From: Escherichia coli
Lineage (GTDB): Bacteria > Pseudomonadota > Gammaproteobacteria > Enterobacterales > Enterobacteriaceae
Assembly (NCBI RefSeq): GCF_041886205.1
Contig: NZ_CP169029.1
Reading direction: 5' to 3' (one strand)
DNA: 64,000 nucleotides
In this document: piece by piece, positions 56,002 to 58,181 of the stretch
How positions within the stretch are numbered: position 1 is the first letter of the stretch
Layout of the letters: every line of letters starts with the position of its first letter
Position numbers and translations under genes: made by a program
Notes under the pieces: generated by a model
Database searches by the model: none
Seen by the model: the letters and a program-made list of their open reading frames with translations, nothing else
What the model was told of the DNA's origin: nothing

Positions 56002-57153
56002 ATGTCACTTGTCACCGATCTACCCGCCATTTTCGATCAGTTCTCTGAAGCTCGCCAGAAAGGCTTTCTCACCGTCATGGATCTCAAGGAGCGCGGCATT
56101 CCGCTGGTTGGCACTTACTGCACCTTTATGCCGCAAGAGATCCCGATGGCAGCCGGTGCGGTTGTGGTTTCGCTCTGTTCCACCTCTGATGAAACCATTG
56201 AAGAAGCGGAGAAAGATCTGCCGCGCAACCTCTGCCCGCTGATTAAAAGCAGCTACGGCTTCGGCAAAACCGATAAATGCCCCTACTTCTACTTTTCTGA
56301 TCTGGTGGTCGGTGAAACCACCTGCGACGGCAAAAAGAAAATGTATGAATACATGGCGGAGTTTAAGCCTGTTCATGTGATGCAGCTGCCAAACAGCGTT
56401 AAAGACGATGCCTCGCGTGCGTTATGGAAAGCCGAGATGCTGCGCTTACAAAAAGCGGTGGAAGAACGTTTTGGGCACGAAATTAGCGAAGATGCTCTGC
56501 GCGATGCCATTGCGCTGAAAAACCGCGAACGTCGCGCACTGGCTAATTTTTATCATCTTGGGCAGTTAAATCCTCCGGCGCTTAGCGGCAGCGACATTCT
56601 GAAAGTGGTTTACGGCGCAACCTTCCGGTTCGATAAAGAGGCGTTGATCAATGAACTGGACGCGATGACCGCCCGCGTTCGTCAGCAGTGGGAAGAAGGC
56701 CAGCGACTGGACCCGCGTCCACGCATTTTAATCACCGGCTGCCCGATTGGCGGCGCAGCAGAAAAAGTGGTGCGGGCGATTGAAGAGAATGGCGGCTGGG
56801 TTGTCGGTTATGAAAACTGCACCGGGGCGAAAGCGACCGAGCAATGCGTGGCAGAAACGGGCGATGTCTACGACGCGCTGGCGGATAAATATCTGGCGAT
56901 TGGCTGCTCCTGTGTTTCGCCGAACGATCAGCGCCTGCAAATGCTCAGCCAGATGGTGGAAGAATATCAGGTCGATGGCGTAGTTGATGTGATTTTGCAG
57001 GCGTGCCATACCTACGCGGTGGAATCGCTGGCGATTAAACGTCATGTGCGTCAGCAGCACAACATTCCTTATATCGCTATTGAAACAGACTACTCCACCT
57101 CAGATGTCGGGCAGCTCAGTACCCGTGTCGCGGCCTTTATTGAGATGCTGTAA
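56002..57153 (+). CDS. yjiM: 2-hydroxyacyl-CoA dehydratase D-component-like protein YjiM
   Basis: Translation MSLVTDLPAIFDQFSEARQKGFLTVMDLKERGIPLVGTYCTF... (383 aa) from ATG at 56002. Confidence 0.85.
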   Translation: MSLVTDLPAIFDQFSEARQKGFLTVMDLKERGIPLVGTYCTFMPQEIPMAAGAVVVSLCSTSDETIEEAEKDLPRNLCPLIKSSYGFGKTDKCPYFYFSDLVVGETTCDGKKKMYEYMAEFKPVHVMQLPNSVKDDASRALWKAEMLRLQKAVEERFGHEISEDALRDAIALKNRERRALANFYHLGQLNPPALSGSDILKVVYGATFRFDKEALINELDAMTARVRQQWEEGQRLDPRPRILITGCPIGGAAEKVVRAIEENGGWVVGYENCTGAKATEQCVAETGDVYDALADKYLAIGCSCVSPNDQRLQMLSQMVEEYQVDGVVDVILQACHTYAVESLAIKRHVRQQHNIPYIAIETDYSTSDVGQLSTRVAAFIEML

Positions 57154-57162
57154 GGAGTGGCA

Positions 57163-57930
57163 GTGACATATTCGATTGGCATTGATTCTGGTTCTACCGC
57201 CACCAAAGGGATCTTACTGGCAGACGGCGTGATTACGCGCCGTTTCCTCGTTCCAACACCCTTTCGTCCGGCAACAGCAATTACTGAAGCCTGGGAAACT
57301 CTGCGCGAAGGGTTAGAGACAACGCCGTTTCTGACGCTCACCGGCTATGGACGGCAACTGGTGGATTTTGCCGATAAACAAGTGACGGAAATCTCCTGTC
57401 ACGGGCTGGGCGCACGGTTTCTTGCGCCAGCAACGCGCGCGGTAATCGACATCGGTGGTCAGGACAGCAAAGTGATTCAGCTTGATGATGACGGTAACCT
57501 GTGCGATTTCCTGATGAATGACAAATGCGCGGCGGGCACCGGGCGTTTCCTGGAGGTGATCTCGCGCACGCTTGGCACCAGCGTCGAGCAACTCGACAGC
57601 ATTACCGAAAATGTCACGCCGCATGCCATCACGAGTATGTGCACAGTGTTTGCCGAATCAGAAGTGATCAGCCTGCGCTCAGCGGGCGTCGCGCCAGAAG
57701 CGATTCTCGCCGGAGTGATTAACGCGATGGCGCGGAGGAGTGCCAATTTCATTGCTCGTCTCTCCTGTGAAGCGCCGATTCTGTTTACTGGTGGCGTTAG
57801 TCATTGCCAGACGTTTGCCCGGATGCTGGAATCTCATCTGGGAATGCCGGTAAATACCCATCCTGATGCGCAATTTGCTGGCGCAATTGGCGCGGCGGTA
57901 ATTGGTCAACGAGTGAGGACACGCCGATGA
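57163..57930 (+). CDS. yjiL: BadF/BadG/BcrA/BcrD-type ATPase (dehydratase activator-like) YjiL
   Basis: Translation MTYSIGIDSGSTATKGILLAD... (actin-like ATPase motif); GTG start at 57163 with AAGGAG RBS 5 nt upstream. Confidence 0.85.
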   Translation: MTYSIGIDSGSTATKGILLADGVITRRFLVPTPFRPATAITEAWETLREGLETTPFLTLTGYGRQLVDFADKQVTEISCHGLGARFLAPATRAVIDIGGQDSKVIQLDDDGNLCDFLMNDKCAAGTGRFLEVISRTLGTSVEQLDSITENVTPHAITSMCTVFAESEVISLRSAGVAPEAILAGVINAMARRSANFIARLSCEAPILFTGGVSHCQTFARMLESHLGMPVNTHPDAQFAGAIGAAVIGQRVRTRR

Positions 57931-58181
57931 AAGAGTTTTTATTTTTATTTCACTCCACAGTCGGCGTCATACAAACCCGCAAAGCGTTGCAGGCAGCGGG
58001 CATGACTTTTCGCGTCAGCGATATTCCCCGTGATTTACGCGGCGGCTGCGGGTTATGCATTTGGCTGACCTGTCAGCCCGGCGAGGAAATACAATGGGTG
58101 ATCCCTGGGCAGACCGAAGCGATATATTGCCAGCAGGGCAGCGACTGGCTGTGCGTGGTGCATTACGATGCAGAAGCGTGA
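57927..58181 (+). CDS. small DUF3343-like protein translationally coupled to yjiL
   Basis: 84-aa ORF MKEFLFLFHSTVGVIQTRKALQAAGMTFRVSDIPRDLRGGCGLCIWL... whose ATG overlaps the yjiL stop (ATGA). Confidence 0.6.
   Translation: MKEFLFLFHSTVGVIQTRKALQAAGMTFRVSDIPRDLRGGCGLCIWLTCQPGEEIQWVIPGQTEAIYCQQGSDWLCVVHYDAEA

Follow-up and report, generated by a model that had tools for sequence, protein, structure and literature searches.

ytiA, the predicted translationally coupled third gene of the yjiM-yjiL unit of Escherichia coli, and its possible role as a selenium or sulfur carrier beside a double-cubane-cluster protein

The window analysed here is a 64,000-nucleotide (nt) stretch of Escherichia coli DNA (RefSeq assembly GCF_041886205.1, contig NZ_CP169029.1). 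Three open reading frames (ORFs) on its plus strand, at positions 56002-58181, were read together with their junctions. The first, yjiM (56002..57153, +, 383 amino acids, aa), encodes a single-subunit HGD-D protein, a homologue of the class II double-cubane-cluster proteins (DCCPs). The second, yjiL (57163..57930, +, 255 aa), encodes an ASKHA-type ATPase homologous to the activators of dehydratases and to the DCCP reductase (DCCP-R). The third, ytiA (57927..58181, +, 84 aa), is the orthologue of b4715 and encodes a DUF3343/Se_S_carrier protein with a PF11823 match and a RefSeq coding sequence (CDS). The start codon of yjiL is GTG, located 9 nt past the yjiM stop and preceded by AGGAG. The ytiA ATG (57927-57929) and the yjiL TGA stop (57928-57930) share a 4-nt overlap, ATGA. 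An earlier note on this DNA, made from the sequence alone, had described an 84-aa ORF at this place with its ATG overlapping the yjiL stop, and that reading is correct to the base. The predicted translational-coupling junction covers 57915..57930 (+), in which GAGGA (57915-57919, -12 to -8) is followed by a 7-nt spacer and ATGA. As judged from these letters and from related genomes, ytiA has the marks of a translationally coupled gene, namely the start/stop overlap, a ribosome-binding site inside yjiL, and the keeping of this arrangement in relatives.

By itself, a stop/start overlap counts as weak evidence, since an A precedes a TGA stop in about one of four cases by chance. In addition, the window holds many spurious ORFs of 80-120 codons, and several ORFs of a length similar to ytiA overlap real genes. 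Direct detection of E. coli YtiA was not found in the literature searched. These points would agree with a chance frame of 84 codons without a functional product. Such a frame does not account for the profile search, in which YtiA scores 51.3 bits against PF11823 (Se_S_carrier, formerly DUF3343), twice the gathering cut-off of 25 (E=8.4e-14), with residues 4-59 aligned to model positions 2-57 of 69. The earlier note had called the ORF DUF3343-like, and the profile bears this out. The dN/dS ratio of ytiA is well under 1 (0.22 against divergent E. coli, 0.10 against Citrobacter; about 0.04 for yjiM and about 0.08 for yjiL), and according to these ratios the gene is under purifying selection. The overlap and the position are kept in six enteric genera. 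The yjiL/ytiA overlap measures 4 nt in E. coli SCPM, Citrobacter and Superficieibacter, 1 nt in Cedecea and 11 nt in Hafnia, and an overlap persists even where ytiA starts with GTG instead of ATG. Homologues of 56-96% identity are present in Citrobacter, Klebsiella, Raoultella, Kosakonia, Atlantibacter and Phytobacter. With the motif conserved across phyla and the confident fold prediction described below, the chance-frame explanation is effectively refuted. It is almost certain that ytiA is real and is co-expressed with yjiM-yjiL. The family match, dN/dS, the kept overlap and the RefSeq CDS all uphold the proposal of the earlier note that yjiM and yjiL have a genuine third partner gene in the small ORF, and they show this gene to be conserved.

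The gene is already known as K-12 b4715 and UniProt YTIA_ECOLI, and RefSeq names its product 'DUF3343 domain-containing protein' or 'putative Se/S carrier protein'. The protein of the window is annotated as a CDS in ET201 (WP_000657683.1), and the exact 84-aa sequence is present in NCBI on 271 public contigs. For the E. coli survey, window positions 57800-58500 were compared by megablast with 5426 complete E. coli genomes, and 5385 of these matched the region. Coverage of at least 80% over the first 211 nt of ytiA is found in 5384 genomes, and 5372-5385 genomes carry yjiM-yjiL. The earlier note had staked its proposal on the presence of the small ORF in genomes with yjiM-yjiL, and it is present in these 5384 of 5426 E. 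coli genomes and in six of six enteric loci of the cross-species sample. A literature search for E. coli ytiA or b4715 found nothing, all matches to 'ytiA' being a Bacillus ribosomal protein paralogue. A database cluster at 90% identity contains both YtiA and 255-aa sequences, the representative being YjiL. Fusions of YjiL and YtiA were considered for this cluster and rejected; since its 255-aa members are ordinary YjiL, the mixture appears to be a clustering artefact, possibly caused by the overlap of the genes.

The YtiA family was aligned using 31 members from enterics and Firmicutes. Phe8, Cys41 and Gly42 are invariant, Pro34 is at least 90% conserved, and the family motif is (I/T)P.PR..(S/R).(G/C)CG. 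Cys41 is the sole universally conserved reactive residue. The Cys41-Gly42 codons are located at 58047..58052 (+), and this invariant CG motif (IPRDLRGGCGLC) is the proposed attachment site of selenium or sulfur. One highly conserved Cys in the DUF3343 family was reported previously (Lin et al. 2015, PMC5322559), and YtiA fits the DUF3343 pattern of a small stand-alone protein (about 80-100 aa) with one such residue. The AlphaFold model of YtiA, built with the 31-member alignment, has a mean predicted local distance difference test (pLDDT) of 91.9 and a predicted template modelling (pTM) score of 0.82. The predicted fold is a ferredoxin-like beta-alpha-beta-beta-alpha-beta-beta sandwich, in which Cys41 ends the loop before strand 3. 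A sequence search for a solved DUF3343 structure gave noise only (E>0.1), and no sequence relation or specific fold relation of YtiA to TusA/YedF or SufE/CsdE was found. YtiA might instead be a ligand-binding regulatory or structural subunit of the ACT/PII/CutA kind, tuning the YjiL ATPase or YjiM with no chalcogen involved. This explanation leaves the invariant Cys-Gly unaccounted for, as well as the tight pairing of the family with desulfurase, YedF, YedE and SelD genes described below, and we consider it quite unlikely.

The partner proteins were classified by profile and structure searches. YjiM matches Pfam HGD-D (E=4e-122) and scores 532 bits against the NCBIfam double_cubane equivalog NF040772, for which the cut-off is 350. 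Its RefSeq product name is 'double-cubane-cluster-containing anaerobic reductase'. YjiL matches BcrAD_BadFG (E=1e-76, 258 bits) and TIGR00241 CoA_E_activ (364 bits). The closest solved structure to YjiM is the DCCP of Carboxydothermus hydrogenoformans (PDB 6ENO; complexes 7YYL and others; E=4e-75). YjiM residues 26-383 align to this protein, the cluster Cys residues are kept, and an ATPase gene adjoins as yjiL does; the C. hydrogenoformans DCCP/DCCP-R system is described as two genes without a DUF3343 partner, unlike the E. coli trio. In the phmmer alignment, Cys40, 59, 78, 93, 108, 273, 302, 304 and 335 of YjiM pair with Cys residues of 6ENO. A search of 1.84 billion representative proteins with YjiM gave 3345 matches, and 42 full-length diverse homologues were aligned. 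In these, Cys78, Cys108, Cys302 and Cys335 are invariant, and Cys40, Cys59 and Cys273 are at least 90% conserved. The published seven-Cys motif, written with its literal spacing as a regular expression, does not match YjiM, whose Cys spacings are 18, 18, 29, 164, 28/30 and 30. The assignment of the seven Cys residues therefore rests on the 6ENO alignment. By homology, YjiM is predicted to be a double-cubane [8Fe-9S]-type reductase and YjiL its ATP-driven electron-injecting partner. Double-cubane proteins were first described in 2018. YjiM was previously presented as a probable class II DCCP and YjiL as its ATP-dependent partner (Jeoung, Martins, Dobbek; PMC7317905). According to the same paper, YjiM is without the channel-closing N-terminal helices, so that it could conceivably act on a coenzyme A (CoA) ester or some other large substrate. 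Because this extension is absent, YjiM may accept a larger substrate, even a protein-bound one. Ten long homologues of YjiM were inspected for fusions. They include ATPase-DCCP fusions, one tandem HGD-D protein and one PucR-helix-turn-helix fusion, and no fusion of DUF3343 to a DCCP or an ATPase was found among them.

The earlier note had called yjiM-yjiL a dehydratase/activator module. In such a case, the pair would be a radical enzyme of the 2-hydroxyacyl-CoA dehydratase kind with its activator, acting on a CoA ester, and YtiA would be a third subunit. Pfam does place YjiM in HGD-D and YjiL in BcrAD_BadFG, the K-12 record still reads 'putative dehydratase subunit', and the open channel mentioned above leaves room for a CoA ester (PMC7317905). 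The dehydratases are alpha/beta heterodimers, whereas only one HGD-D gene is located between yjiN and yjiL, with no alpha/beta pair. On the models of the hydroxyisocaproyl-CoA dehydratase subunits HadC and HadB, YjiM scores 95.5 and 20.2 bits, far below the cut-offs of 700 and 750, while it exceeds the cut-off of the double-cubane equivalog. The full DCCP set of Cys ligands is conserved in YjiM, and no CoA-transferase or acyl-CoA genes are present among the neighbours of yjiM-yjiL. A requirement for a DUF3343 subunit is not known for any characterised dehydratase. The dehydratase explanation is thus very unlikely. The dehydratase label is outdated according to the profile scores and the single HGD-D gene, and YjiM is, on its sequence, better called a double-cubane protein.

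In order to compare loci across species, genomes were scanned with the 42-homologue alignment using one genome per species, and the best 80 loci were retained (49-97% identity to YjiM). DUF3343 genes within 6 kb were detected with a hidden Markov model (HMM) iterated from YtiA. The DUF3343 calls are clean, every match having E<1e-14 and the next best ORF E=0.4. A DUF3343 gene is present at 23 of the 80 YjiM-like loci, and a YjiL-like ATPase gene at 53. All six enteric loci show the order DCCP-ATPase-DUF3343. Outside Enterobacteriaceae, DUF3343 is located at 17 of 74 loci. In Firmicutes and one Halanaerobium the orders DUF-DCCP-ATPase, DUF-ATPase-DCCP, DCCP2-DUF-ATPase and DCCP-ATPase-DUF were observed. 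The adjacency is kept despite the shuffled order, and this argues for functional coupling with selection for co-expression rather than shared ancestry alone. YtiA probably works with YjiM/YjiL. That DUF3343 is a recurring third gene of YjiM-type DCCP systems was not found stated in the literature consulted.

The neighbourhoods outside the enterics point to selenium, handled by a double-cubane iron-sulfur reductase, rather than to an acyl-CoA dehydratase. In Firmicutes, DUF3343 mostly adjoins a gene of the cysteine-desulfurase/Sec-lyase type together with YedF and, at some loci, SelD. In Anaerococcus marasmi, a cysteine desulfurase family gene (TIGR01977), DUF3343, the ATPase and the DCCP follow each other in one operon with overlaps of 20, 4 and 4 nt, and the next best model for the TIGR01977 gene is the selenocysteine lyase SclA. 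The divergent neighbour of this operon contains SelD, YedF (TIGR03527), a second DUF3343 and a second desulfurase, and YqeC and XdhC are located just beyond. The E. coli trio resembles a stripped-down version of the Firmicute desulfurase-carrier-ATPase-DCCP operon, a comparison likewise not found stated in the literature consulted. Over the 80 loci, a desulfurase-type gene is present in 14, 12 of which have DUF3343 (Fisher p=1.5e-6), and YedF is present in 10, nine of them with DUF3343 (p=2.9e-5), these Fisher statistics being uncorrected for relatedness. SelD is present at five of the 80 loci. A corrinoid methyltransferase context was also observed, in which URO-D/MtaA-like, RACo and CobW genes accompany two DCCP paralogues, DUF3343 and the ATPase. 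In Hathewaya, the DCCP2-DUF3343-ATPase block is located within such a URO-D/RACo/CobW cluster. This type of cluster was read as methyl-selenide or methyl-sulfur salvage in a preprint, whose depiction of type I MGC clusters marks DCCP and DCCP-R as putative selenium genes (PMC10418091).

DUF3343 genes are also found away from DCCPs. In gut Lachnospiraceae, close relatives of 78 aa end a SelD-SelA-SelB-LysR-desulfurase-YedE-TusA cluster, which adjoins glycine or proline reductase genes. These look-ups in DCCP-free selenium clusters are examples, and the listed matches are biased to the query alignment. DUF3343 is a general selenium-cluster component, for which the DCCP system is an optional partner. 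Neither strictly needs the other, because each occurs without the other. YtiA shares with the PF11823 family its size, the HMM match, the single conserved Cys and a host with SelD. The Firmicute relatives adjoin genes for Sec-lyase-type proteins, YedF, YedE and SelD, whereas E. coli ytiA adjoins the DCCP/ATPase pair. A selenium-gene neighbourhood correlates with the family but is not strictly required for membership in PF11823.

On this basis, we favour with moderate confidence the reading that YtiA uses Cys41 to carry selenium or sulfur, which it delivers to the YjiM/YjiL reductase or collects there. For the carrier function itself, a Cys-based transport of selenium or sulfur by YtiA, the chances are about even. 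In the proposed mechanism, Cys41 would bind the chalcogen atom as a perselenide or persulfide. YtiA would probably be loaded by a pyridoxal-phosphate enzyme of the cysteine desulfurase/selenocysteine lyase type, as SufE, CsdE and TusA are for sulfur. It would then pass the chalcogen to the active site of YjiM, or take it from YjiM. YjiL, at the cost of ATP, would feed low-potential electrons to YjiM, for example for the reduction of carrier-bound Se(0) to selenide for SelD. Firmicutes cluster a dedicated desulfurase, YedF and SelD with these genes; the E. coli trio would rely on the housekeeping IscS, CsdA or SufS. The overlapping desulfurase and DUF3343 genes of Firmicutes mirror the logic of SufS-SufE, CsdA-CsdE and IscS-TusA, in which a desulfurase is paired with a single-Cys acceptor. 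Unlike these systems, E. coli ytiA has no adjoining dedicated desulfurase, and the likeness concerns a predicted transfer only.

Selenium rather than sulfur as the cargo of E. coli YtiA is put forward only tentatively. It fits three reports. NF040772 proteins were found in SelD-containing genomes in 955 of 970 cases (Haft, bioRxiv 10.1101/2022.07.06.499078), DUF3343 was proposed as a selenium/sulfur trafficking chaperone (Lin et al. 2015, PMC5322559), and in the Slackia STRING table of the latter paper an activase and an HGD subunit stand, uncommented, among the DUF3343 partners. Sulfur may also be the cargo, because DUF3343 occurs in organisms lacking SelD, with no selenium-specific clade (Lin et al., PMC5322559), and because no selenium gene (Sec lyase, YedF, YedE or SelD) is among the neighbours of ytiA in E. 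coli.

Besides these two facts, several further points weigh against the favoured reading. DUF3343 is not nearby at 57 of the 80 YjiM-like loci. It is also missing next to three longer and more distantly related DCCPs, one of them archaeal. The Lachnospiraceae selenium clusters with DUF3343 have no DCCP within 8 kb. In addition, the 80 loci were taken for their top scores rather than at random, and related species among them do not count as independent. In the literature, neither experimental binding or transfer of selenium or sulfur by any DUF3343 member nor biochemical data for YjiM, YjiL or YtiA were found.

Part of the same evidence could be read in another way. YtiA may be a maturation or repair factor delivering the ninth, bridging sulfide (or selenide) by which two [4Fe-4S] clusters become the [8Fe-9S] cluster of YjiM, the sulfur or selenium being mobilised by a desulfurase. 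The desulfurase-DUF3343-ATPase-DCCP operon resembles the logic of NifS-type cluster assembly, the single invariant Cys of the family would suit such a delivery, and a selenium-bridged cluster was named as a formal possibility (Haft, bioRxiv 10.1101/2022.07.06.499078). In several Firmicutes (loci L085, at 6682-8252, L052, L063, L083 and L027), a second DCCP paralogue of about 419-440 aa, scoring above the NF040772 cut-off, adjoins the YjiM-like DCCP, and DUF3343 is located directly 3' of this paralogue, followed by the ATPase. The regular placement of DUF3343 at this position also agrees with a maturation role. The 57 YjiM-like DCCP loci without DUF3343 do not agree with it. Since closely related DUF3343 genes are located in selenium clusters that have no DCCP, the general job of the family is not DCCP maturation. 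We regard the maturation role as unlikely for YtiA.

A more specific form of the favoured carrier reading can be stated. YjiM, YjiL and YtiA may constitute a minimal ATP-driven chalcogen reductase, in which the Se(0) of the Cys41 perselenide would be reduced to selenide for SelD at the double cubane. As a variant, YtiA would supply a bridging selenium atom to the YjiM cluster. The Se(0)/HSe- couple has a very negative potential, and this would justify an ATP-driven reductase. On the other side, thiol-bound perselenides are reducible by ordinary thiol systems, which makes the ATP-driven reductase step speculative. At present we consider the chalcogen reductase rather doubtful.

The genes around the trio in the window and in K-12 are mdtM, yjiN, yjiM, yjiL, ytiA, yjiK and yjiJ. 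yjiN (DUF445, 401 bits; 54606-55886) is located after mdtM on the same strand, 115 nt upstream of yjiM. In the literature, 'yjiL-mdtM' figures as a cluster with an effect on how proline-rich antimicrobial peptides are taken up (PMC8801401, citing Krizsan 2015). The sole hint on expression found is that yjiM was up in O157 Sakai along with genes of oxygen limitation (PMC2241611). The best FNR box before yjiM has two mismatches and is located 207 bp upstream, inside yjiN; 41 FNR-like sites with two mismatches are present in the 64 kb, so that this site is at about chance level. Promoter and terminator scans gave counts at the level of shuffled sequences, with no terminator-like hairpin after ytiA, and Rfam gave no match in 54000-61000.

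In K-12, ytiA (85 aa) occupies the same place after yjiL with the same 4-nt overlap (K-12 4563922-4563925). Residues 1-49 of the two proteins are identical, whereas the last about 15 residues differ (DWLCVVHYDAEA in the window, VWRCIAHYGVSPR in K-12), the protein of the window being one residue shorter. This strain-variable 3' end covers 58138..58181 (+) and borders an AT-rich island, and the similarity to K-12-type genomes ends there. In the megablast survey, the alignments of most E. coli genomes extend no further than query position 338, corresponding to window position 58137 inside ytiA. The divergence among E. coli grows toward the 3' end of the operon. Most genomes show 95-99% identity over yjiM-yjiL. 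Over the first 211 nt of ytiA the identity is 90-95% in 2331 genomes, and over the segment 57800-58137 it is only 80-90% in 1800 genomes. Downstream of ytiA the GC content drops from 0.54 to 0.33. The break at 58137 may be a recombination boundary beside a variable island.

The island itself (58182-60900) has a GC content of 0.33-0.35, compared with 0.54 for the flanking genes, and is located between ytiA and a yjiK-like gene. Its gene at 58501-60768 (+) encodes a 755-aa pentapeptide-repeat protein with a tandem ANNSTEKQ repeat (about seven copies) and a PQIP/ATLAT tract. The repeat number varies, because the ET201 copy is shorter (2211 nt). The strain type with the island comprises 635 of the 5426 E. 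coli genomes, O157:H7 included; the other type has yjiK directly after ytiA. In E. coli STEC306 (NZ_CP091016.1; locus L003, 4131-8172), the match to the window ends 45 nt into ytiA (about 57971). A Mu-like element follows the break, with helix-turn-helix proteins, a Mu transposase C-terminal domain protein and an AAA ATPase, and the ytiA CDS is unannotated. This strain looks like a natural insertion knock-out of ytiA.

Another gene pair of the window had been linked with the trio in the earlier note, which counted two radical-type enzyme systems. One is at 14926..17311, where yjjI (14926-16476, 516 aa) encodes a YjjI-like glycyl radical enzyme (PF11230, 732 bits) and yjjW (16448-17311, 287 aa) a radical-SAM activase with Radical_SAM and Fer4 domains. 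The two ORFs overlap by 29 nt. For yjjI/yjjW the label holds. For yjiM-yjiL it is unproven, because YjiM scores as a double-cubane protein, not as a dehydratase.

As an annotation, ytiA is ordinary. The ORF, its family and the double-cubane identity of YjiM are in public annotation and the link between DCCPs and selenium is in the literature, so that the finding is already known in these respects. The comparison adds context for three uncharacterised genes of E. coli. The enzyme partner is a double-cubane reductase homologue, and the YtiA family elsewhere sits within selenium-utilisation clusters. With SelD, the stand-alone trio and the formate dehydrogenases as selenoproteins that are simple to assay, E. 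coli lends itself to a direct genetic test of the idea. A confirmed link would provide a new step in selenium (or sulfur) trafficking, and as a lead it is modest but testable; failing this, ytiA would stay a further small accessory gene. If the trio were an ATP-driven chalcogen reductase, it would fill the poorly defined selenide-supply step in bacterial selenium assimilation, and it would give the double-cubane proteins a first physiological substrate, in E. coli.

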